A stretch of DNA of 32,000 bases from Pseudoalteromonas tetraodonis (GCF_002310835.1 NZ_CP011042.1:510001-542000), one strand, 5' to 3'. Shown: positions 3,182-22,745, numbered from the stretch's first letter. Numbers and translations: made by a program. The notes: generated by a model not told the origin, from the sequence alone.

Positions 3182-3204
3182 ACTCGATTTAATCTCTCGC
3201 TTTT

Positions 3205-3239
3205 AAAAAACGCAGCCTAATTTTAGGCTGCGTTTTTTT
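3205..3239 (+). terminator. Rho-independent terminator
   Basis: aaaaaacgcagcctaa/ttaggctgcgttttttt: a perfect GC-containing stem followed by a T-run. Confidence 0.8.
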
Positions 3240-3473: not shown

Positions 3474-5729
3474 ATGAGTTTACGTACAAAATTAAAAAAA
3501 GTATTACCAAGCATTTCAGTTACTGAGCAAGAAGCGCTAGACGCTGGCGATGTATGGCTAGAAGGGTCTATCTATCGAGGTAAACCAGATTTCAGCGCGC
3601 TACGCGATGTACCTGCGGCTAAATTAACCGCAGACGAGCAAGCGTTCTTAGATGGCCCAGTACAAGAATTACTTGGCATGATTGACGATTCAGTCATTCA
3701 AAATGGTATTCATTTACCAAACGACATTTTAGAGTTTTTGAAAAAAGAGCGTTTCTTCTCGCTGATCATCCCTAAATCGTTTGGCGGTTTAGAGTTCAGC
3801 CCATACGCTAACTCAACAATTGTAGGTACAATTGCTACTAAAAGCTCAGCGGTTGCGGTAACCGTAATGGTACCAAACTCGTTAGGCCCGGGTGAGTTAC
3901 TTCTTCACTTTGGTACAGAGGAGCAACAGGCACACTACTTACCACGTCTTGCAAATGGTACAGACATTCCATGTTTTGCACTAACCAGCCCAGAAGCAGG
4001 CTCTGATGCAGGCGGTATTCCAGATGTAGGTACTGTAACTAAAGGTATGTACAACGGTGAAGAAGTACTCGGCTTAGAAATCACATGGGACAAACGCTAC
4101 ATTACACTCGCGCCAATTGCTACTGTACTTGGTTTAGCGTTTAAAGTGGTTGACCCTGATGGTCTACTAGGTGGTAAAGAAAACCTAGGTATTACCTGTG
4201 CACTTATTCCAAAAGAGCACCCTGGTGTAGAACTTGGTAACCGTCATGATCCTATGGGTATCCGTTTTTACAACGGTACTACACGTGGTAACAAAGTATT
4301 TGTACCAATGGACTTTATTATCGGTGGTCAGAAAAACATCGGTCGCGGTTGGCAAATGCTAGTTAGCTGTTTAGGCGCAGGTCGTGGTATTTCATTACCA
4401 GCATTAGGTGTAAGTACAGCACAAGTTGCATTTAAATCAGCTTCTGAGTACGCAGCAGTGCGTGAACAGTTTGGTTTATCAATTGGTCAATTTGAAGGTA
4501 TTCAAGAAAAGCTAGCTGACATTGCAGGTAAAACATACCTACAAGAAGCAATGCGTGTACTGACAACTGAAGGCTTAGGCATGGGCTTAAAACCATCGGT
4601 AGTGACTGCAATTGCTAAATACCATATGACAGAGCTTGGCCGTGATGTGCTTGACTCAGCAATGGATATTCAAGCGGGTAAAGCGATTCAGAATGGTCCT
4701 CAAAACACGCTTGCTAGTGGTTATGTGGCGCAGCCAATTGCCATTACGGTAGAGGGCGCAAACATTCTGACTCGTAACCTGATGATCTTTGGTCAAGGTG
4801 TTATGCGTTGTCACCCATACTTACAATCTATGGTTGAGTCTATCCACAGCGATGACAAAAACGCAGATGCAGAATTTAATGGTATTTTACGTAAAACAAT
4901 TGGCTACAGTACAGCAAATAGCTTACGTGCATTCCGTTTAGGTGTATTACCGTTTACTGCTGGTGCAAACTCGGCATTACCAGAAGTACGTGACTACGAA
5001 AAAGCAGTGCATAAACTATCAGCTAAATTAGCTGTATATGCTGACTTTTCGTTACTAGTACTTGGCGGTAAATTAAAGCAAGCTGAGATGCTTTCAGCAC
5101 GCTTAGGCGATGTAATGAGCTTCTTATATGCAGCTATGGCATCTATTAAGTATTACGAGCAAAAAGTAGCAAGTAGTGAGCGCGAGCAAGCGGCTCCTTA
5201 CTTCCATTATGCGACTCGTTTTGCATTACAAAGTGCTGAAGAAGCATTGCACAAGTTTTTAGATAACTTCCCTGCAAGTGGTACTCGTAAGTTCATTCGT
5301 TTCATTACCATGAACTACTCAACTAAAATGCCAAAAATCAGCGATGATTTAATTCGTGAATTAGCGAAACAAGCTCAGCTTGATACAGCATTTAAAGCGC
5401 AAATTACCCATTTAGTTAAGCCAATTGAAGGTGATGGTCATCACATCAACGAGCAAGCTTACAAAGCTAAAATGGCGTCACTTGAGTTATTAGCAAAAGT
5501 GAAAAAAGCGCTACGTGCTAAAACCTTTAAGCCGGGTACGCGTTTTTCAATCACACTTGAAAATGCACTTGCTGCAAAAGTAATTAACGACGCTGAATTT
5601 GTTCAGTTAAGTGATTATAACAAAAAGCGTGAAAAAGCGATTCGTGTTGATGAGTTCGACTTCGATATGAACATCCTAGACGACAACGCACAGCCAGTTA
5701 ATCCGCTTAAAAGCGTGGTTAACCAATAA
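3474..5729 (+). CDS. fadE: Large acyl-CoA dehydrogenase (FadE type)
   Basis: 751 aa. It has an acyl-CoA dehydrogenase core (ALTSPEAGSDAG, ITVEGANILTRNL, RCHPY) plus the long C-terminal extension characteristic of FadE-type enzymes. Confidence 0.85.
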   Translation: MSLRTKLKKVLPSISVTEQEALDAGDVWLEGSIYRGKPDFSALRDVPAAKLTADEQAFLDGPVQELLGMIDDSVIQNGIHLPNDILEFLKKERFFSLIIPKSFGGLEFSPYANSTIVGTIATKSSAVAVTVMVPNSLGPGELLLHFGTEEQQAHYLPRLANGTDIPCFALTSPEAGSDAGGIPDVGTVTKGMYNGEEVLGLEITWDKRYITLAPIATVLGLAFKVVDPDGLLGGKENLGITCALIPKEHPGVELGNRHDPMGIRFYNGTTRGNKVFVPMDFIIGGQKNIGRGWQMLVSCLGAGRGISLPALGVSTAQVAFKSASEYAAVREQFGLSIGQFEGIQEKLADIAGKTYLQEAMRVLTTEGLGMGLKPSVVTAIAKYHMTELGRDVLDSAMDIQAGKAIQNGPQNTLASGYVAQPIAITVEGANILTRNLMIFGQGVMRCHPYLQSMVESIHSDDKNADAEFNGILRKTIGYSTANSLRAFRLGVLPFTAGANSALPEVRDYEKAVHKLSAKLAVYADFSLLVLGGKLKQAEMLSARLGDVMSFLYAAMASIKYYEQKVASSEREQAAPYFHYATRFALQSAEEALHKFLDNFPASGTRKFIRFITMNYSTKMPKISDDLIRELAKQAQLDTAFKAQITHLVKPIEGDGHHINEQAYKAKMASLELLAKVKKALRAKTFKPGTRFSITLENALAAKVINDAEFVQLSDYNKKREKAIRVDEFDFDMNILDDNAQPVNPLKSVVNQ

Positions 5730-5769: not shown

Positions 5770-6052
5770 TTGATACAAAATTAGTGTGGAGTCCTGCTTG
5801 AGTAACATCAAGCGGGGCTTTTTTATGGGGGTGATTTAAGCTCATAACTAATGACGACTAATTTGATGGTACAGAACATTATTAAACGTTGTTTTAGTGT
5901 ATTTTAACAATGGGTGGTAAATAAGCTACGTAATTACTTGTTTACATTAGAGTTGTTTAGTGGAATTATTGAGCGTATATAATATACGCTGTTTTGAGGG
6001 TTATAACCCCCAAAGTGGTGTTTAATAAGCTGTTATGTTTTAGGGAAAAATT

Positions 6053-6370
6053 ATGATTTATACGACAACGGAAACTGTTCCTGGTAAGGAAATCGAAGCT
6101 GTATTGGGCATAGTTAATGGCAACATGGTTCAGTCTAAACATGTTGGTCGAGATATCATGGCTGGTTTAAAAGGAATAGTGGGCGGCGAACTCAAAGGCT
6201 ATACCGAGATGTTGATGGAAGCTCGAAATGTAGCGTTAGAACGATTAATAGAAGATGCAAAAAAGTTAAATGCCGATGCAATAGTAGGAATACGATTTAC
6301 AACTAGCTCAGTTACTGATGGGGCATCAGAAATATTAGTGTTTGGCACAGCCGTTAAACTTCGAACATAA
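6053..6370 (+). CDS. ybjQ: YbjQ/UPF0145-family protein (tentative cassette 1)
   Basis: 105 aa. It is collinear with the YbjQ family (TTETVPGKEI, IMAGLKGIVGGELKGYTEML, ADAIVGIRF, FGTAVKL). Confidence 0.8.
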   Translation: MIYTTTETVPGKEIEAVLGIVNGNMVQSKHVGRDIMAGLKGIVGGELKGYTEMLMEARNVALERLIEDAKKLNADAIVGIRFTTSSVTDGASEILVFGTAVKLRT

Positions 6371-6468
6371 CAAACAATTTAAGCAGATTCGAAACGCTTG
6401 GCATTTTTGGTGTTTTCTTCCAAAGCCAAGAAATGAGGACGCTTTCCTCTTTTCTGCACTGTATTAAA
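6368..6468 (+). repeat. attC-like site A with a degenerate 3' core
   Basis: It starts TAACAAACAATTTAAGCAG on the ybjQ stop codon. Its 5' half is nearly identical to that of site H (AACAAACACATTAAGCAG...GTTGGC), with an internal cttggc/gccaag stem. The 3' end is unclear: either GTATTAA near 6462 or GTTAAAA at 6517-6523. Confidence 0.45.
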
Positions 6469-6610
6469 AGAACACCCTGACTAAAAGTTTAAAGTTGGCA
6501 ATGTGTTAACTTATTTGTTAAAAAGAAATTAATAAATATATTAGTGGGGCGCTGGCAGAGATATGCGCGATGAGCACACTATAAAATTGTTATGCGCAAA
6601 TGGAGTCTGC

Positions 6611-7315
6611 ATGAGTAAAATAATCAAACTATCAGCATTAGTGCTGATCATATTTATTGCTTTATGGCAGCTGAGTAAGAATGAAAAATTTCAATTTTTT
6701 GGTAACCTTATAGATCGAGTAGAAACAACTGAAAAAGTAGTCGCATTAACTTTTGATGATGGTCCGACTAGACTTAAAACAAAAGAATTTCTCCAAATCC
6801 TAGATGAATCAGAAATTAAAGCTACATTTTACCTAGTCGGCAAAGCTATAGAAGAAAACATTCAAGAAACAAAAAATATCATTGATAAAGGTCATGAAGT
6901 TGGAAACCATTCATATACTCATCAACGAATGGTTTTGAAAAGTTATAACTTTGTTGCAGATGATCTAGAAAAAACTAATGAGTTAATTACAGAGGCAGGT
7001 TATAAAGGTGAAATACATTTTAGACCACCTTATGGTAAAAAATTGTTTTCGCTACCTTATTATCTAAATAATAATAATATAACTACCGTTACGTGGGATG
7101 TGGAGCCTGAAACTTATTTAGATAAAAATGCTAGTGCAAGTGATATATCCGATTACGTTGTCCAAAATACTAAGCCAGGGTCAATTATTCTTTTACATGT
7201 AATGTTTAAATCTAGAGGTAATTCAATGGCTGCGGTACCTTTAATTGTTCAGCAGTTAAAAGATAAAGGTTATCGCTTTGTTACAGTATCTGAATTAATA
7301 GGCAGTAGCGCATAA
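6611..7315 (+). CDS. Polysaccharide deacetylase (NodB homology domain) with an N-terminal membrane anchor (cassette 2)
   Basis: NodB motifs are present (TFDDGP, GHEVGNHSYTH, RPPYG, ILLHV). AAATGGAGT lies 6 nt upstream of ATG 6611. The track start at 6563 has no RBS. Confidence 0.8.
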   Translation: MSKIIKLSALVLIIFIALWQLSKNEKFQFFGNLIDRVETTEKVVALTFDDGPTRLKTKEFLQILDESEIKATFYLVGKAIEENIQETKNIIDKGHEVGNHSYTHQRMVLKSYNFVADDLEKTNELITEAGYKGEIHFRPPYGKKLFSLPYYLNNNNITTVTWDVEPETYLDKNASASDISDYVVQNTKPGSIILLHVMFKSRGNSMAAVPLIVQQLKDKGYRFVTVSELIGSSA

Positions 7316-7412
7316 CAAGGTGCTTAAAAGGACTAAAACAGTTTGCTCGTTTTTTGCAAAGTACCGCAAAAAAGCCAGCCAACCATTTTAGCCTCTTAGC
7401 AAAGCGTTAGGG
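7313..7412 (+). repeat. attC site B
   Basis: TAACAAGGTGCTTAAAAGGACTAAAA pairs, with bulges, to TTTTAGCCTCTTAGCAAAGCGTTAGGG. The TAA of the 5' core is the stop codon. The 3' core is GTTAGGG. Confidence 0.75.
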
Positions 7413-7427
7413 TTACAAGGAGTTTCG

Positions 7428-7798
7428 GTGAAATATATAGCGTTCTTATTTGTTTTTACTTTGGTTGGTTGTGTGTCAACACCACCCAAAGCTATAAATG
7501 AATTTTATAACGGGAAATATCTTCGATAATTCCAATACCTACTGTTAATGCTGCCATTAAAGTAAGCCAATCTTCTTATGTTGAATATAATATTTTGCCC
7601 AATGGCACAAGACAACTTGCACTAGTAGGTGAAGCAGGTTGGAATCGGTTCTATCAACAGCTAATCGAGATAAAACCAACAAACGACAATTCTACATTGG
7701 TACAAGTCTATGAAATCAGCTCGGCTTGGAAAAAACACACGAGTAGAATAGTTGGTTGGCTTAACGGTAAGGAAGCTGAAGGTTGTGGTGTTTGGTAA
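7428..7798 (+). pseudogene. Frameshifted small lipoprotein gene (cassette 3)
   Basis: AAGGAG then GTG 7428 gives VKYIAFLFVFTLVGC|VSTPP (a lipobox) and terminates at 7527-7529. A second frame is open from 7511 to 7798. The two frames overlap by 19 nt around GGGAAA, so a single indel would fuse them into a protein of about 123 aa. Confidence 0.6.
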
Positions 7799-7801
7799 CC
7801 C

Positions 7802-7900
7802 TAACAAGGCAATTATGGGTGGGACGTCTAAAGCTTGGCTGGCGCTCATTCTTCGCTAATTTTAGCCAAGCTTCATACGCTCCATATTGCGGCGTTAGGT
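7802..7900 (+). repeat. attC site C
   Basis: TAACAAGGCAATTATGGGTGGGACG pairs with CGCTCCATATTGCGGCGTTAGGT. The inner stem is aagcttggct/agccaagctt. Confidence 0.8.
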
Positions 7901-7903
7901 GCT

Positions 7904-8344
7904 ATGTCGGTTAAATTTGCTTTGCCTCATTTTTTAGAAGGGATTCAGACGCAGGAAACATATTTAAAGTGGCTGACTCGTAAGGCAGTTGCACACATAA
8001 AAAGAGATCGAAATAGAGGGAACGTAGTCGCAACCACATCAAGTTATAAAGTGGCAATTCATGAAGCGGTTTGTGAATCCGGTGGTTTTGATTTTTACAC
8101 TGGTGAAAAACTAGATTGGACGTTGCTTAGTCAATATAACAACGATGATTCTAAAAAACTCAAACGAGAGTATAAAAAGCGGTTTGCTCTTTTACCTTCT
8201 GTAGATCATGTGGACGACGGACTATCTCATGCAAATTTTAAAATTTGTGGTTGGCGTACAAATGATTGTAAAAACGACTTAAGCCACGAAGAACTCGTCG
8301 ATGTTTGCAAAAAGATCATAAGGCATTATGAAAAACGCACCTAA
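7904..8344 (+). CDS. Hypothetical protein with a possible degenerate HNH/His-Me-finger motif (cassette 4)
   Basis: The track ORF starts at 7835, inside attC C. The first ATG after the GTTAGGT core is 7904. The C-terminal half reads YTGEKL...LPSVDHVDDG...ICGWRTNDCKND, with D-H...N...N spacing like an HNH core but without the Zn cysteines. Confidence 0.5.
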   Translation: MSVKFALPHFLEGIQTQETYLKWLTRKAVAHIKRDRNRGNVVATTSSYKVAIHEAVCESGGFDFYTGEKLDWTLLSQYNNDDSKKLKREYKKRFALLPSVDHVDDGLSHANFKICGWRTNDCKNDLSHEELVDVCKKIIRHYEKRT

Positions 8345-8429
8345 CAAAATAATTATGTGGGACACAAACACGCAGGCTCTGCTTCGCAGTTTAGCCTACG
8401 TGTTTGTGCCCCATATTTAGAAGTTAGCT
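8342..8429 (+). repeat. attC site D
   Basis: TAACAAAATAATTATGTGGGACACAAACACG pairs with CGTGTTTGTGCCCCATATTTAGAAGTTAGCT. The TAA is the stop codon. Confidence 0.8.
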
Positions 8430-8451
8430 ATTCAAGGAAATTTAGCATTCA

Positions 8452-8964
8452 ATGAAAAACTTTATTTTAATCATCTTAGTAAGCTTAATTGCGGGTTGTG
8501 CTGCAAACATTAAGCAATCAGTAAAAACATCGAACATGCAGCAAGGAGCCATACCAAATAGTATATCAGTAGCTATATCCTCATCTAATTCAATCTCTAA
8601 AAGTAGAGATTTAACTAAAAGTATCACTGAACTTAATACATTAATAACTACAGATTACAAAGGTAATTTGATACCAAGCAACTCATCTAATCAGGCTGAT
8701 ATCTCCGTGGAAATAACAATAGAGCATTTTCGTTATGTTTCAGGGTTTGGTCGATTTATGGCTGGTGTAATGGTAGGTGATGCCGAATTGATGCTAAACG
8801 TTAAGCTCGTAGACCTATCCACAAACCAAATAGTTAGTGAATCGCAGCTAGACACTCGTTCAGAGTTTAGTGAAGGAATATTCGGTGCTACAACTTCTAG
8901 ACAGTTAGAAGCTATGTCTAAAAAGATAGTTGATATCATCAATTCAAGTGCAAAGAATAGCTAA
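8452..8964 (+). CDS. Lipoprotein, DUF4410-like (cassette 5)
   Basis: Lipobox LIAGC|A. The central YVSGFGRFMAGVMVGDAEL...VKLVD segment resembles the DUF4410 lipoprotein family as I remember it. Confidence 0.55.
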   Translation: MKNFILIILVSLIAGCAANIKQSVKTSNMQQGAIPNSISVAISSSNSISKSRDLTKSITELNTLITTDYKGNLIPSNSSNQADISVEITIEHFRYVSGFGRFMAGVMVGDAELMLNVKLVDLSTNQIVSESQLDTRSEFSEGIFGATTSRQLEAMSKKIVDIINSSAKNS

Positions 8965-9047
8965 CAAGCAATCAGGCAGGGACAAATGCTAGTTGGCCAA
9001 ACAACGGCCAAAACGCTCCCATGAGCACCTGTTGTAAGGTGTTATAT
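8962..9047 (+). repeat. attC site E with an imperfect 3' core
   Basis: TAACAAGCAATCAGGCAGGGAC pairs with CGCTCCCATGAGCACCTGTTGTAAGGTGTTAT. The 3' half aligns with site C, but the GTT core is interrupted. Confidence 0.6.
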
Positions 9048-9065
9048 GAAATTAGGAGAGAATTT

Positions 9066-9467
9066 ATGTTGAGAAGGATGTCTTTGATATTGCTGGTTTG
9101 TACATTCGGTGCCCATTCAGGTGAGGAGGTACTTTCCATTGATAGAGTTGTACCTAATAGTTTTAATTTAGCCTTTCCAAATGAATCAAACATTCAGCCA
9201 GAGCAGAGTGATTTTAGTGTAAATAATTTTGTATTAATGAGTAATGATTCTGGTGAGCGTTGGGCGGTAGTAACTTTGACTAATATGGCATCAGGTCGAA
9301 GAAGTCTAACTAATAAACACCTAATGGCTATCGTTGCAGACGGGCAACGAATTGCACCATTGGAGTTTTTACAATCATTCAAAGCAGATGAGACACTATC
9401 GTTAACCATCAACTTTGGTGAAAGTAAGTTTCCTTTGCTATCAATCTATTCAAGGTCTGGCAAATAA
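9066..9467 (+). CDS. Secreted hypothetical protein (cassette 6)
   Basis: AGGAGAG lies 5 nt upstream of ATG 9066. Signal peptide MLRRMSLILLVCTFGAHS. No recognisable domain. The track start at 9021 lies inside attC E. Confidence 0.55.
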   Translation: MLRRMSLILLVCTFGAHSGEEVLSIDRVVPNSFNLAFPNESNIQPEQSDFSVNNFVLMSNDSGERWAVVTLTNMASGRRSLTNKHLMAIVADGQRIAPLEFLQSFKADETLSLTINFGESKFPLLSIYSRSGK

Positions 9468-9590
9468 CAAACACATCAAAATGCTCGCAATCTCGCTAGG
9501 ATATCAAAACTACACGGGGATTGAGTTTGGGCTTGGCCAAGTTTAACTAAATCGCCGTTACGTTTTAGCCCTTTATACGGGCTTATTTGC
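9465..9590 (+). repeat. attC-like site F, long, with a decayed 3' core
   Basis: It starts TAACAAACACATC on the stop codon and contains ggcttggccaag and TTTTAGCCctttatacGGGC elements. It ends GGGCTTATTTGC where other sites have GGGCGTTA. Confidence 0.45.
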
Positions 9591-9603
9591 ACAAGGAGGC
9601 AAA

Positions 9604-9990
9604 GTGAATATCAGACATATTTTATTACTCGTTATCATCTTATTTATATCTGGTTGCACCACGTCAGGTCAGCTTTATTATATTGATACTAAAGGTAATG
9701 AGAAACTTGGTTGTGATGTAGAATTTGTAGGTATGCCAAGAGTTGATAAATTTGCTGTTGAATATGCTTTAAGCCTTTGCGCTAAAAGCATTGTCAAAAA
9801 AGGGGGCGTGATTCAGGAAGAACACCTTTTAATGGTTGATACAACCATTCCATTAGCCCCATGTGAAAAGGCTTGGACTCACGAATTAGCTAAGCAACAA
9901 TATCAGGCTAAAAAGTTAACTAAGAAAGAGTATGGCTATATTGTTGCAAATATAGATTTAGGTTTAGCAACGGTCAACAAGTGCACATAA
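9604..9990 (+). CDS. Lipoprotein, unknown function (cassette 7)
   Basis: AAGGAGG then GTG 9604. Lipobox FISGC|TT. Confidence 0.6.
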   Translation: MNIRHILLLVIILFISGCTTSGQLYYIDTKGNEKLGCDVEFVGMPRVDKFAVEYALSLCAKSIVKKGGVIQEEHLLMVDTTIPLAPCEKAWTHELAKQQYQAKKLTKKEYGYIVANIDLGLATVNKCT

Positions 9991-10087
9991 CAGGCGCTTT
10001 GAGCGCGGAACTGCTAACAGTTGACTTAGTTTCGCTTCGTTACACATTTTAGCCAACAATTATCAGCCCATTATCCGGGCTTTAGGT
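9988..10087 (+). repeat. attC-like site G with a mutated 3' core
   Basis: It starts TAACAGGCGC on the stop codon, has an internal ctgctaacagttg / ccaacaattatcag pairing, and ends CCGGGCTTTAGGTT, with TTTAGG in place of GTTAGG. Confidence 0.5.
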
Positions 10088-10118
10088 TTTCATCAAAATA
10101 TGGAGTTTTATTTTAATT

Positions 10119-10508
10119 ATGGAAGAATCAGTTCAAGTCAAAAATAATGAAGATAGTATAGAGAAATCTCGAAGTGTAGAAAAAAATAAAATCCAAAATG
10201 AAACTATTACAACAGAGTTACATTTTGAGTTGTTAAAACAGTATGCATGGCTATCCTCAGCAATAATAGGTGCTGTTGTTATACTTATTCAATTAAAAGT
10301 ACTTACCTTTGGCTCAAAGGTTTATATTCCTTTAGGTTGTTTTTGTTTTTCAATTCTTAACTCTTTAATTGCTCAAGACTATATAGTTGAGTCATTAACA
10401 AAAGGTAAAACTATTTATGATATCTCAAAAAAAGTATATATATTACGCAACTTCTCTATATTTGGTTTAGGGCTTGGCGTAGGATTACTTGCTAATAGCT
10501 TTATTTAG
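10119..10508 (+). CDS. Small membrane protein with a hydrophilic N-terminus and 2-3 TM segments (cassette 8)
   Basis: Hydrophobic stretches (WLSSAIIGAVVILIQL, IPLGCFCFSILNSLI, FSIFGLGLGVGLLA). The start is uncertain because the TGGAG lies 13 nt upstream. Confidence 0.5.
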   Translation: MEESVQVKNNEDSIEKSRSVEKNKIQNETITTELHFELLKQYAWLSSAIIGAVVILIQLKVLTFGSKVYIPLGCFCFSILNSLIAQDYIVESLTKGKTIYDISKKVYILRNFSIFGLGLGVGLLANSFI

Positions 10509-10603
10509 TCAACAAACACATTAAGCAGAATAAAACAGTTGGCTTTTGTTCCTGCGTCTCTAATTTTGCCAACAATTTTATTGCCTCTTTTGGGGCGTTA
10601 AAT
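10507..10603 (+). repeat. attC site H
   Basis: GTCAACAAACACATTAAGCAGAATAAAACAGTTGGC pairs with GCCAACAATTTTATTGCCTCTTTTGGGGCGTTAAAT. The 3' core is GTTAAAT. Confidence 0.7.
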
Positions 10604-10620
10604 ACCTAAATGGAGTTTAG

Positions 10621-10935
10621 ATGAATATTCAAGTTTTTAGACCAAAACAATTTGTGGATATGGCGAGAGACTATAAGTTGTTTGCGGATGACGTAGAAGT
10701 TGCCACTATAAAAAGAGGGGTTACGCAAACAGTAAACATCCCTGATTCAACTAAAAACATTCAAGCGAAAATAGATTGGTGTTCAAGCCAAACTTTTCCT
10801 GTAGCCTCAATTACTGACAAAGGAATTATTATTAAAAATTCTTTTGGTAGTAATATATTCAAATTGCTTTTTTTAACTATTTATTATGTCAGTTTCGGTA
10901 AAAGCAAATACTTATCGGTAACAAACGGTATTTAG
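10621..10935 (+). CDS. Hypothetical 104-aa protein (cassette 9)
   Basis: AAATGGAGT lies 6 nt upstream of ATG 10621. The C-terminus is hydrophobic (IFKLLFLTIYYVSF). No recognisable domain. Confidence 0.5.
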   Translation: MNIQVFRPKQFVDMARDYKLFADDVEVATIKRGVTQTVNIPDSTKNIQAKIDWCSSQTFPVASITDKGIIIKNSFGSNIFKLLFLTIYYVSFGKSKYLSVTNGI

Positions 10936-11029
10936 TAAGAATATTCAAACGAAAAAAAACCGTTGGTTGTTTTCACACTGTTTAATATTTTAGCCAACTA
11001 TTTCAAGTCTGTTTATATTGGCGTTTTAC
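10919..11029 (+). repeat. attC-like site I with a weak 3' core
   Basis: TAACAAACGG lies within the last codons of the ORF. There is an internal cgttggtt / agccaact pairing. It ends TTGGCGTTTTAC. Confidence 0.4.
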
Positions 11030-11044
11030 GAACTAAGGAAAGTT

Positions 11045-12151
11045 ATGATTAAATCAATACTGATAATATTTACATTGTTTTTAGCTAGTCTTGCTACCGC
11101 TGAAGAGTTTACTGATGTGTCTGAGATCACAGAGCGCTTGGAAGATGACATACCAAAGATTTTAGATAAACACAAAGCTCCTGGTGTTGCACTTGCATTT
11201 GTCAATGGAAATAGAGTTCTAGAGTTTCGATCCTATGGTTTTGCCGACGTAGCAGCCAAAACTGAGATTACCCAAAGCACAATGTTTAACGTAGGGTCTA
11301 TTTCTAAGCTGGTTACTGTTTGGGGAGTAATGCAACTTGTAGCTCAAGGCAAAGTCGATTTAGATGCGCCAATAAACCAATACCTCAAACGTTGGCAGAT
11401 CCCTAAGTCTGAGTTTAACGCAAAAAAAGTAACATTGAGAAATATCTTATCTCACACTTCAGGCTTGTCACTTGGCCCATATACAGGCTGGGAGTCTCCA
11501 GAAAAGTTAACATCTATAGTTGACTCACTAAATGGCAATAACAATGGCGCCGGATCTGTTGAACTTATTCATGTGCCCGATACAAAATGGTCTTATTCTG
11601 GTGGTGGGTATTCAGTGGTGCAACTTTTAATTGAAGATGTGTCAGGCATGGCATTTGAAGACTATATGCAGCAATACGTGTTTAAGCCTCTAAATATGAA
11701 GGATTCTACTTTTAACATTACTAAAAAAGTTATCAAAAAGTCGGCAACACCTTACGATAATTCCGGCAAAGTCACGGGCATGGTTTATTTTAATGAGAAA
11801 GCAGCTGCTGGTTTACAGACAACGCCAATAGACTTAGCACGCTTTAATATGGCTGTGTTGCGCAACAACGATGGTGATTATAATGGTTTAGGGTTGCTAC
11901 CAGAAAAATTAATTGATCTGATGATAAAGCCCGCGCCAAACACTAATGGGCGCTGGAGTATGAGCTATGTTGTTGACGCAAAGAATAGCAGTCTTGGCTT
12001 TGCTGGATTTAATCGTGGTTGGGTCTCGCTATCACGCTCTATCACTGACCTTAACTTTGGTTATGTGATTTTAAGTAATAGTAGTATTGGCGCAGTGAAT
12101 AATGACATTGATAGTCTTATCCTTTCTATTGTTAAACAAAGCCATAACTAA
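11045..12151 (+). CDS. Exported serine hydrolase of the beta-lactamase/PBP4* (class C-related) family (cassette 10)
   Basis: AAGGAAAG then ATG 11045. Signal peptide. S-x-x-K nucleophile motif (GSISKLVT), YSGGGY and a typical length of about 370 aa. Confidence 0.75.
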   Translation: MIKSILIIFTLFLASLATAEEFTDVSEITERLEDDIPKILDKHKAPGVALAFVNGNRVLEFRSYGFADVAAKTEITQSTMFNVGSISKLVTVWGVMQLVAQGKVDLDAPINQYLKRWQIPKSEFNAKKVTLRNILSHTSGLSLGPYTGWESPEKLTSIVDSLNGNNNGAGSVELIHVPDTKWSYSGGGYSVVQLLIEDVSGMAFEDYMQQYVFKPLNMKDSTFNITKKVIKKSATPYDNSGKVTGMVYFNEKAAAGLQTTPIDLARFNMAVLRNNDGDYNGLGLLPEKLIDLMIKPAPNTNGRWSMSYVVDAKNSSLGFAGFNRGWVSLSRSITDLNFGYVILSNSSIGAVNNDIDSLILSIVKQSHN

Positions 12152-12262
12152 AATGGATACAACAAAGTATTTCAGCGGGTAAAGCGCTCAATTCGACGAT
12201 AAGTTTGTAGTGGCATAGATAATTTTGCCGCCCATTCAAAAACTAGCATTCGTTTTTTACAT
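12143..12262 (+). repeat. Possible terminal attC remnant J
   Basis: CATAACTAA spans the stop codon, followed by TACAACAAAG and later AATTTTGCCGCCC...CGTTTTTTAC. This resembles the 3' halves of H and I, but the pairing is poor. Confidence 0.3.
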
Positions 12263-12356
12263 ACAGGGTTGTGAAAAAACATACAGAGCTTTTTACTAAG
12301 ACCTTTTATTAAAAACACCGTCTAATGTTAAGCTAACTAAAATTTAGCAACCTAAT

Positions 12357-13325
12357 ATGGCTATGTCTTTTTATCTTCCGTTACTTATCCCGCATTTTCA
12401 ACGTATAGCTATTGGCGAAACCCTAACCTCGCTTTGGAGTGGCTGTGGTCAAATTGTGAAGTGCCAACTTGATGAACAAGCCTGTGTGATTAAAGCGATT
12501 AAAGTACCCGATCATATTAATCACCCTAAAATTAAACAAAGCAGCTTTGCGCTGACTAGGAAGCGTGACTCTTACCACGTTGAATATACGTTTTATCAGC
12601 AATTTAGCCATAAACTGCCCAAGCAAGCGGCAGCTATTGAATGCATTAAAGCAATCAACAAAGGCGATGAATTTGCCTTGGTGTTTAAAGATTTTTCAAA
12701 GCTGGGATACACCCAAGCAACCACCGAGAATATAAAAGCCATATTAAAGTGGTTGGGACAGTTTCATGCCTTTCATTTAAATGCCTTTCATTTAAATACA
12801 AAGTTTGATGGCTTATGGCCGCAAGGAAGCTATTGGCATTTAGATACCCGGCCTGATGAATTTAATAACTTGCCCGAAAAGTCCGATATTAAACAGGCAG
12901 CTACTCAATTAAATAACGCGTTAAAACAATGTGACTACCAAACGTTAATTCATGGTGATGCCAAGCTTGCTAATTTTGCCGCTAATAGCCAAGGGCATAT
13001 ACTCGGTTATGACTTTCAATATGTGGGTGCGGGTGTTGGGGTGGTAGATGTTATGTATTTTATGACCAGTTGTATGGATGATTCTGAGCTTCACAAACAC
13101 GCACAAACTTACCTCGATTATTATTTTAGCCAGTTTAAAAACGCACTCAGTCACTACCAACCAGCAGTGAATGCGGATGACGTTATTGCACAATGGGCTC
13201 ATTTATGGCCGGTGGCGTGGGCAGACTTTTATCGGTTTTTACTTGGGTGGAGCCCCGAGCACAAAAAAATTAACGGCTACATGCAAGCCCAGGTAAATAA
13301 TTGGTTAGCCAGTAACAACTCATAA
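12357..13325 (+). CDS. Kinase-fold phosphotransferase (APH/choline-kinase/EcKinase-like)
   Basis: Catalytic-loop motif HGDAKLANF and a DFG-like YDFQYVG. Length 322 aa. Confidence 0.65.
   Translation: MAMSFYLPLLIPHFQRIAIGETLTSLWSGCGQIVKCQLDEQACVIKAIKVPDHINHPKIKQSSFALTRKRDSYHVEYTFYQQFSHKLPKQAAAIECIKAINKGDEFALVFKDFSKLGYTQATTENIKAILKWLGQFHAFHLNAFHLNTKFDGLWPQGSYWHLDTRPDEFNNLPEKSDIKQAATQLNNALKQCDYQTLIHGDAKLANFAANSQGHILGYDFQYVGAGVGVVDVMYFMTSCMDDSELHKHAQTYLDYYFSQFKNALSHYQPAVNADDVIAQWAHLWPVAWADFYRFLLGWSPEHKKINGYMQAQVNNWLASNNS
12766..12795 (+). repeat. Perfect 15-bp tandem duplication inside the kinase gene
   Basis: atgcctttcatttaa occurs twice back to back (12766-12780 and 12781-12795). It is in frame and gives HAFHLNAFHLN. 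Confidence 0.95.
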
Positions 13326-13458: not shown

Positions 13459-14091
13459 ATGGCTATTCACGTTATTTCTCACCCCCTTGTTCAACATAAG
13501 TTAGGTTTAATGCGCGCGCATGGAATTAGCACGAAAAGTTTTCGAGAGTTGTGTTCAGAAGTTGGGACATTATTAACTTACGAAGCCACTAAAAACCTAG
13601 AATTAGAAGATAACGAAATTACAGGTTGGGACGGTAATAAACTTAAAGTTGAGCATATTAAAGGTAAAAAAATTACCGTTGTGCCAATTTTACGTGCGGG
13701 CCTTGGGATGATGGACGGCGTAATGCAATTACTCCCAGCAGCTAAAGTGAGTGTAGTGGGGTTAGAGCGTAACGAAGAAACACTTGAGCCAGTACCTTAT
13801 TTTGAAAAGCTAGTAGGTAATATTGATGAGCGTTTGAGCTTAGTGATTGACCCTATGCTGGCTACTGGTGGCTCTATGATCGCCACTATCGATATGCTTA
13901 AAAAAGCGGGCTGTAAAGAAATTAAAGTTATTGTACTGGTTGCTGCGCCTGAGGGCGTTGAAAAAACATTAGCTGCTCACCCAGATGTAGAGATTTTTAC
14001 TGCCTCAGTTGATAGCCACCTTAATGAAAAAGGCTACATTATCCCAGGATTAGGGGATGCAGGTGATAAAATTTTCGGTACGGTTTACTAG
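13459..14091 (+). CDS. upp: Uracil phosphoribosyltransferase
   Basis: Full-length match in style to Upp ([35 protein letters not shown]). Confidence 0.95.
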
Positions 14092-22347: not shown

Positions 22348-22482
22348 CTATTTTTTCTTCATACCCTGTACGGCCTTAAATCTAGGATTATCTTTACATA
22401 TCACGAACACGCGCCCTTTACGCTTTACAATTTGACAACCAGGTCGTTGCTTTGCGCTTTTTAATGAACTTAATACTTTCAT
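22348..22482 (-). CDS. ykgO: Ribosomal protein L36 paralog, type B (Zn-ribbon lost); absent from the ORF track
   Basis: My own translation of the minus strand gives [44 protein letters not shown]. This is nearly collinear with E. coli YkgO. ATG 22482 overlaps the rpmE2 stop (ATGA). Confidence 0.9.
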
Positions 22483-22745
22483 TTGCTTTCCTTTTTAGCC
22501 GAAGATAAGTTTTTAAAACGACGATTAAATTGCGCAACGCGGCCATCAGATGCGAGCGTTTTTTGTTTGCCTGTATAAAATGGGTGTGAGTCAGATGAAA
22601 CATCAATAGGCACATAGGGATATGTATTACCGTCTATTTCGATAGTGCGGTCGGTTTTGATGGTTGAACCTATAATGAAATATGAATCGGCTGCAGTATC
22701 ATGAAAAGCAACCACATGGTAATCAGGGTGAATATTTGGTTTCAT
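22479..22745 (-). CDS. ykgM: Ribosomal protein L31 paralog, type B (no CxxC Zn motif)
   Basis: MKPNIHPDY...HPFYTG matches the L31 signature. The translation contains no cysteines, as expected for type B. Confidence 0.9.

Follow-up and report, generated by a model that had tools for sequence, protein, structure and literature searches.

The DNA analysed here (32,000 nt of Pseudoalteromonas tetraodonis, NZ_CP011042.1:510001-542000; below "the window", whose numbering is used unless a locus is named) raises the question of how a row of small co-oriented genes, separated by imperfect palindromes, came to stand behind the acyl-CoA dehydrogenase gene fadE with no recombinase gene beside it. The locus is on chromosome II (the chromid) of an SM9913-like Pseudoalteromonas. 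The evidence supports positions 5866-12258 as a genuine integron cassette array that lacks an integrase, that is, a cluster of attC sites lacking integron-integrase (CALIN; Cury et al. 2016, PMC4889954). Very probably it is a sedentary chromosomal integron array whose integrase gene (intI) was deleted in place, and it is most likely a stranded and decaying relic today.

A preliminary description of the window had placed about ten co-oriented one-gene modules between fadE and upp. Ten co-oriented open reading frames (ORFs) were indeed found at 6053-12151, each followed by a spacer of 36-280 bp, and fadE is the upstream neighbour; the direct downstream neighbour, on the other hand, is a kinase gene of the EcKL/APH family, and upp follows it. 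The ten products include YbjQ, a CE4 polysaccharide deacetylase, a 67-aa fragment, a 146-aa protein and a DUF4410 lipoprotein; the others are four proteins of 104-129 aa without a family match and a serine hydrolase of beta-lactamase fold. As had been described, the array is more AT-rich than its surroundings (36.4% GC; 42.6% on its upstream and 41.1% on its downstream side; the window's last third also has just 37.3%), and a tyrosine recombinase is absent: no tyrosine-recombinase or Phage_integrase domain came up when the main ORFs of the 32 kb were scanned with Pfam, and tblastn with six IntI proteins over all six frames of the 32 kb gave no integrase remnant (best E = 0.11). The functional intI adjoining an attI that marks a complete integron is not found in the window. 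The parts of the array, with cassettes lettered A to J, are as follows.

5828..5874: 47-bp scar, in place of about 1.1 kb (intI and LexA box) in sister genomes
5866..6034, plus strand: attI relic, type 1; crossover G6032|T6033 (aagctGTTAT)
6033..6404, plus strand: cassette A, ybjQ 6053-6370 (Pfam YbjQ_1, E = 1e-38) and most of an attC (from 6366)
6405..6591, plus strand: attI relic, type 2; crossover G6589|T6590 (aaattGTTATGC); intI and LexA box of this platform gone
6590..7406, plus strand: cassette B, polysaccharide deacetylase, likely start 6611, stop 7315 (Pfam Polysacc_deac_1, E = 1e-30); attC_B model match 7310-7414, extending beyond the crossover
7407..7894, plus strand: cassette C, frameshifted lipoprotein gene 7428-7529 and 7595-7798; attC_C 7799-7902, extending beyond the crossover
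7895..8423, plus strand: cassette D, 146-aa protein 7904-8344 (longest ORF 169 aa); attC_D 8339-8431, extending beyond the crossover
8424..9041, plus strand: cassette E, DUF4410 lipoprotein 8452-8964 (Pfam DUF4410, E = 2e-6); weak attC_E model match 8959-9049, extending beyond the crossover
9042..9582, plus strand: cassette F, 129-aa secreted protein 9078-9467; degenerate attC relic 9465-9589, as read from the sequence, extending beyond the former crossover
9583..10081, plus strand: cassette G, 128-aa lipoprotein 9604-9990; attC_G 9985-10089, extending beyond the crossover
10082..10597, plus strand: cassette H, 129-aa membrane protein 10119-10508; attC_H 10507-10605, extending beyond the crossover, R' GTTAAAT
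10598..11023, plus strand: cassette I, 104-aa protein 10621-10935; attC_I 10930-11031, extending beyond the crossover, degenerate cores TAAGAA / GTTTTAC
11024..12258, plus strand: cassette J, serine hydrolase of beta-lactamase fold 11045-12151 (Pfam Beta-lactamase, E = 6e-53); last attC relic 12160-12258

Folding by minimum free energy (MFE) separated the spacers only in part. Those of B (z -3.1), C (z about -4) and D (z -6.4 to -8.3) were far more stable than dinucleotide shuffles, while the spacers of A, E, F, G, H, I and J were no better than shuffles (z 0 to -2.2; F, -1.2 to -1.9). MFE z-scores by themselves are a poor test of attC sites, as they pass only B, C and D, and Rfam gave no family at gathering thresholds; a covariance model independent of the window was therefore built. 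Model R1 was made from 11 attC sites (spacers) of intI-adjacent arrays of P. arctica, S3178, P. fuliginea and P. aliena, and contains no window sequence. Its consensus hairpin has 32 pairs, 16 of them with compensatory changes; the terminal R box (TAACG/TGTTA) is 5 bp long, and the stem is interrupted by a 2x2 internal loop and by bulges of constant position. Run on metagenome and genome loci, R1 recovers over 70 sites beside IntI genes, and their strand is always the one predicted by the orientation of intI. A second model, R2, was made from 73 attC sites flanking IntI genes.

Six sites of the window were matched by R1 (C 64.9, D 55.4, B 54.8, H 50.0, G 47.8 and I 40.1 bits; E-values 8e-15 to 3e-8), and the same six by R2 at 34-79 bits (C 78.7, D 68.1, G 53.3, B 49.8, H 49.4, I 34.1), the E-values over both models being 2e-6 to 5e-18. 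With the cassettes on the plus strand, the recombinogenic bottom strand is the minus strand, and all six matches lie there; they are spaced 430-1560 bp apart, and each starts at or just past a stop codon. Bottom-strand scores were 40-65 bits, against 11-17 bits on the top strand of the same sites where a top-strand match was reported. The next-best match in the window reached 16.7 bits with R1 and about 17-19 bits over both models. No significant match lies outside the array within the 32 kb, and R1 matched none of the integron-free loci within the 845 kb of related loci searched, only integron arrays. In the six sites 85.7% of the pair cells are paired, compared with 70.3 +/- 2.1 in shuffles and 35-46% with the partners slid; 16 of the 32 pairs are changed on both sides, which none of 500 shuffles equalled, with the caveat that the alignment was fitted to the model. 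CALINs are called from at least two covariance-recognised attC sites less than 4 kb apart on one strand; here there are six.

The full attC architecture (R''-L''-loop-L'-R' with an unpaired spacer and extrahelical bases), which the preliminary description had assigned to B, C, D and H, was found at these four: canonical ..TAAC.. cores, 3' cores GTTAGG (B and C), GTTAGC (D) and GTTAAA (H), and significant covariance scores. The GGGAC/AGGAC bulge motif is also present. The TAACAA 5' core said to share its TAA with the stop codon does so in A, B, D, E, F and G. Site G has lost its crossover G (G to T at 10081; core GGGCTTTAGG), the crossover G of site F is absent (GGGC-TTATTTG), and sites I and J have GTTTT in place of GTTRRR. 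Site E is borderline (9.2 bits with R1; 14.7 bits with R2, E = 0.18), with strand and position as expected. Neither F nor J gave a significant match (J, 14.7 bits with R1, E = 0.16), and R2 gave none for F, J or A. Six attC sites (B, C, D, G, H, I) are thus solid, E is marginal, and A, F and J are decayed or 3'-truncated, so that credible sites number just 6-7 of the 10. Of the last three, F and J retain relics, and A has a partial attC joined to attI-like sequence.

The head of the array carries the trace of the missing integrase. Homology to loci L007 and L009 on the 3' side of fadE ends at 5827 and restarts at 5875, about 1.1 kb in L007 corresponding to the 47 bp of the scar here, and the scar junction is identical in L003 and L006, two relatives described below. 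Beyond it, window 5875-6035 matches, at 82-86% identity, a segment that ten independent loci have some 65 bp upstream of their type-1 intI. Among 11 aligned sequences this segment is conserved through AAGCTGTTA and all of them diverge right after GTTA, an abrupt end that looks like an attI crossover. The LexA box (CTGTATATATAGACAG) and the intI that precede the segment elsewhere are absent from the window. Similarly, window ~6420-6591 has counterparts of 71-85% identity in L008, L009, L089 and nine metagenome loci, where they separate type-2 intI from the first cassette, and nine aligned sequences part right after AAATTGTT. Altogether the two segments match those adjoining type-1 or type-2 intI in more than 20 loci, in all relatives between intI and the first cassette, with the homology stopping at GTT; by this comparison of sequences they are putative recombination sites of two integrase types, whose mutual identity is just 60-62%. 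In the ybjQ cassette the attC runs directly into the type-2 relic, about 14 nt of its own 3' end, R' among them, being absent; the order at the head is therefore attI1, ybjQ, attI2, B to J, with neither integrase gene left. In the P. arctica array a second, internal LexA box with a type-1 attI, integrase-less, lies downstream of a transposase-like region (L086:4889-5125). Tandem attI platforms therefore recur in the genus.

Comparison of the fadE-upp interval among relatives, proposed as a check in the preliminary description, showed that it is not conserved: the site is empty, or holds intI with other cassettes, or, in a 98%-identical strain, the array with a precise two-cassette indel. Of the three outcomes named in that description as refuting it (no covariance matches, an interval conserved gene for gene, folding no better than shuffles), each was decided in favour of the array. 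Among species-representative genomes the empty site was seen in about 17 species, the kinase gene lying within ~180 bp of fadE. P. fuliginea, P. aliena and FUC4 have, right behind fadE, a minus-strand gene that matches the integron integrase model TIGR02249 with 431-506 bits (cutoff 265) and is followed by plus-strand cassettes; TIGR02249 integrases stand right after fadE in L007, L008 and L009, and intI is present at the fadE locus of L007, L009 and L089. Relatives carry a LexA box upstream of intI, and IntI is 59-66% identical to other IntI matches, including proteins of Vibrio, Enterovibrio and Grimontia. Another lineage has just a 78-aa N-terminal intI stub at the same spot. Replicon pPBSW1 of Bsw20308 has the order fadE, an integron integrase annotated in RefSeq, cassettes and insertion sequence (IS) elements, phosphotransferase, upp; this integrase is mentioned in PMC9229058. 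The P. aliena gene at the fadE locus (L008:12600-13749) ends early, before the catalytic tyrosine motif, and some 130 bp farther downstream, on the side of fadE, there is a separate remnant of an intI 3' end; because of this premature end and separate remnant, the fadE-locus integrase of P. aliena is probably inactive too.

The units of the array behave as discrete cassettes bounded at G|TT. Contig AJTK01000033 (GCA_000263075.1; L003) is 97.5-99% identical to the window and lacks exactly 7407-8423, that is, cassettes C and D; at the junction the flanks overlap by the GTTAG common to the R' cores of attC_B and attC_D. This has the signature of the product expected from integrase-mediated attC x attC excision. 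Homologous recombination was rejected as the cause, because the 5-bp GTTAG that the two attC sites share is too short. The ybjQ cassette (window 6032-6408) recurs with 91% identity in a plasmid array of Vibrio sp. THAF190c, there beginning at the GTT of the preceding attC, the same GTT core as in the window. Likewise, a GIY-YIG nuclease cassette on Shewanella xiamenensis plasmid pXY8M34-1, situated 4 kb away from an annotated integron integrase, has an attC with 95% identity to attC_B. In RW-H-Ap-1 (L006:13850-15445) an IS110-family element lies within an attC TAACA^AG core and joins gene B to the remaining attC_E; a second, partial IS110-family copy is found near the end of that array (L006:17448-17760). 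The arrangement looks like an attC-targeted insertion followed by an IS-mediated deletion, and members of the IS1111 family, related to IS110, are known to target attC sites (PMC11187229).

The sequences themselves show that the sites are attC, that the attI segments are homologous, that intI is absent and that the cassette indel is precise; as to the order of events, transcription and today's immobility, we infer the following history. Two integron platforms would have been fused head to tail, attI1 with the ybjQ cassette and then attI2 with nine cassettes, and both integrase genes would have been lost together with their LexA-regulated promoters. Cassettes would have been captured singly, by an integrase recombining a folded bottom-strand attC with attI at G|TT, and lost by attC x attC excision, one such event separating the strains. 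The array would now be essentially frozen, because no integrase is present in cis and the lineage's other known platform has only a pseudogene. Transcription, if any, would start from promoter-like sequences kept in the attI relics: predicted and conserved hexamers TTGTTT-N18-TATAAT (5941-5969) and TTTACA-N17-AATTAT in attI1, and likewise conserved -35/-10-like hexamers at 6515-6542 in attI2. Its decay shows in mutated crossover bases, one frameshifted gene, one attC without its 3' end, and insertion sequences in relatives.

How far the array is static was judged from its nearest relatives. The window is 99.98% identical to chromosome II of Pseudoalteromonas sp. SM9913 (CP001797), and 99.7-100% identical to at least seven other assemblies, in which the cassette content is invariant except for an IS3-family insertion in gene I in some; SM9913 has gene I so interrupted. 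In L096:7323-11989 (Logan SRR2887564) the array is cut in gene I by an IS3-family element, and the place of cassette J and the kinase gene is taken by genes for QatB, a QueC-like protein and TatD, which look like a Qat anti-phage system. The second site of type-1 intI in these bacteria is on chromosome I, beside the SDR gene that ends a valine-catabolism (SDR/mmsB) cluster, as seen in P. arctica and S3178. At this site SM9913 has a pseudogene (L193:6806-7310, CP001796), in which only residues 1-169 remain, over three frames, the catalytic C-terminal half having been deleted; its LexA box and attI have stayed intact. The same pseudogene occurs on contigs from environmental samples that also hold two near-identical copies of the array. 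In other relatives (L195, L201) the chromosome I intI has an internal deletion that leaves about the first 9 and the last 3 codons. Neither of the two known platforms of the lineage, the two that were inspected, has a working integrase. Of the two possibilities left by the preliminary description, an integrase elsewhere or a stranded relic, the relic is accordingly the most likely.

Several observations weigh against this interpretation. For the window strain and SM9913, the search for another intI covered the two known platforms of the lineage only; SM9913 is not named in the IntI cluster listings. A metagenome IntI scan gave no contig from the sample of the window contig (JGI), a weak negative, as that sample was maybe not covered. 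The window, L003 and L006 share the intI scar and yet differ by the C and D indel, an event that, in lineages with a common scar, would call for an integrase acting in trans or for a long-standing polymorphism. SM9913 (L193) and L196 share the chromosome I intI pseudogene (99.6% identity), and their arrays are entirely different from the attI GTT (~7533) to the distal flank; so turnover without an integrase in cis occurs in the clade, and it could be due to IntI acting in trans or to homologous replacement of whole arrays via the conserved flanks. The promoter-like matches were no commoner than in shuffled sequence in a promoter scan. Sites A, E, F and J, four of the ten, do not reach significance, and the attC models were self-built, not those of IntegronFinder, and are tuned to the present attC family.

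The alternative that survives best is that the array is a live satellite, on which an integrase encoded elsewhere (on another replicon, a plasmid or an incoming element) acts in trans through the attC sites and two intact attI sites. Besides the indel behind a common scar and the differing arrays behind the common pseudogene, it is favoured by the canonical AAC/GTT cores kept at B, C, D and H, by both attI crossover sites being intact, and by the trans mobilisation of CALINs proposed by Cury et al. (PMC4889954). We hold it to be rather unlikely, as the chromosome I intI of the lineage is frameshifted and C-terminally deleted, the array is invariant over the at least seven near-identical assemblies apart from the IS3-family insertion, F and G have no crossover G, C is frameshifted, and the sample of the window contig yielded no IntI contig, with the limit just given. 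P0009, considered in the search for a trans integrase, belongs to a different assembly. In a related proposal, the tandem attI sites, each serving a different integrase lineage, would form a two-headed platform on which cassettes are still captured. Any integron integrase entering the cell or expressed from another replicon could then insert or excise cassettes, which would explain cassette turnover in lineages sharing the intI deletion; we regard this as unlikely.

Separation of the array by rearrangement from a complete integron elsewhere on the same replicon, a mechanism listed by Cury et al. (PMC4889954), appears highly improbable. It would fit the IS elements that are common in these arrays (IS110 in L006, IS3 in SM9913, IS91/IS30 in Bsw20308) and the type-1 intI at a different locus (the SDR/mmsB cluster) in P. 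arctica and S3178. Against it, the two correctly oriented attI relics at the array head lie in place, exactly at the intI position of the sister species, with just the 47-bp scar between the fadE terminators and attI; both flanks are ancestral, and the other platform of the lineage has its own pseudogene. That the palindromes are ordinary intergenic repeats (REP-like sequences, miniature inverted-repeat transposable elements, terminators) unrelated to integrons is scarcely credible: seven of the ten spacers fold no better than shuffles, Rfam gave no match and terminator-like hairpins are mildly enriched (11 against 4.6 +/- 2.7 expected), but in the window the attC matches are confined to the array and to one strand, and none fell in the integron-free loci within the 845 kb of related loci searched, unlike dispersed palindromes with their scattered copies; dozens of loci have repeats of this family next to integron integrases, the GTT core is where the indel junction falls, and cassette boundaries are common to Vibrio and Shewanella integrons.

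Read as an integron array stranded by deletion of its integrase, the locus is a well-resolved further member of a published class. Loss of intI is among the origins of CALINs listed in PMC4889954, where ~95% of CALINs have no recognizable intI pseudogene nearby, and IntegronFinder calls for Pseudoalteromonas chromids are tabulated in PMC7858055 (Table S4a). The present array shares with them the attC cluster without an integrase and an origin among the published mechanisms, and differs in that its history can be reconstructed: both attI sites are kept, intI is gone without a pseudogene, and sister species retain it. The sedentary integrons of Vibrionales and Alteromonadales, such as the Vibrio cholerae superintegron with its V. 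cholerae repeats (VCRs), are similar in the fixed site on a secondary replicon, the homogeneous family of ~100-nt attC sites with the layout TAACAA...GGGAC...GCGTTAGG, the LexA box upstream of intI in relatives, and cassettes for small lipoproteins, membrane proteins and unknowns; in contrast, the present array has ten cassettes, no integrase, several decayed attC sites and two different tandem attI sites. With the mobile class 1-3 integrons it shares the scheme of recombination at G|TT, in which cassettes enter by attI x attC and leave by attC x attC events; it differs from these in its attI sequences and integrase lineages and in having no resistance cassettes and no Tn402/Tn7 context. The locus is a clean, reconstructable case of the birth of a CALIN, by in-place deletion of the integrase with attI and cassettes staying behind. 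Repeated losses of the integrase, by at least five routes and on two chromosomal platforms, are seen within this single genus. The case is useful for studies of integron evolution and for benchmarking integron finders; it offers no new mechanism or function, the cassettes being the usual small envelope proteins, hydrolases and unknowns.

The array had been named as the likeliest place in the window for something new, with anti-phage cassettes mentioned among the functions of such arrays. The hint was not supported: no PADLOC defence model matched any of the ten cassette proteins at E <= 0.01, and searches of the uncharacterised ones against PADLOC, PHROGs, NCBIfam and PDB sequences gave nothing except a weak HNH/endonuclease VII-like match of the cassette D protein (PHROG endonuclease VII, E = 9e-4), so that the comparisons give no indication of novel or defence content. 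The cassette J protein scores 81 bits with the NCBIfam model of class C beta-lactamases (cutoff 415), and because it is so far below the cutoff we count no resistance cassette. In cassette C the lipoprotein signal peptide (7428-7529) is in one frame and the remainder (7595-7798) in another. The frameshift is near GGGAAA at ~7515, and the near-identical assemblies L001, L002 and L004 have the identical ORF structure. Gene callers start the deacetylase of cassette B at ATG 6563, inside the attI2 relic, and so read through the attI/cassette junction; ATG 6611, in the cassette and preceded by GGAG, is the likelier start. On the distal side, homology to the EcKL-proximal flank of L006 and L009 restarts at 12285.

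The surroundings of the array in the window are as follows.

Upstream part of the window, before fadE: AcrB/TolC-type efflux genes and a zinc-type alcohol dehydrogenase (ADH) gene
3474-5729: fadE, FadE-type acyl-CoA dehydrogenase, upstream neighbour of the array
12357-13325: EcKL/APH-family kinase gene, immediate downstream neighbour of the array
13459-14091: upp, after the kinase gene; a uracil permease gene is next

Between the ADH and fadE genes, at 3203-3238, is a perfect 34-bp palindrome, AAAAAACGCAGCCTAAAATTAGGCTGCGTTTTTT, which gives weak partial matches to the attC model and looks like a bidirectional terminator. Farther downstream, on the minus strand at 22348-22745, the genes of ribosomal proteins L36 and L31 adjoin each other, according to the gene calls of an identical contig.

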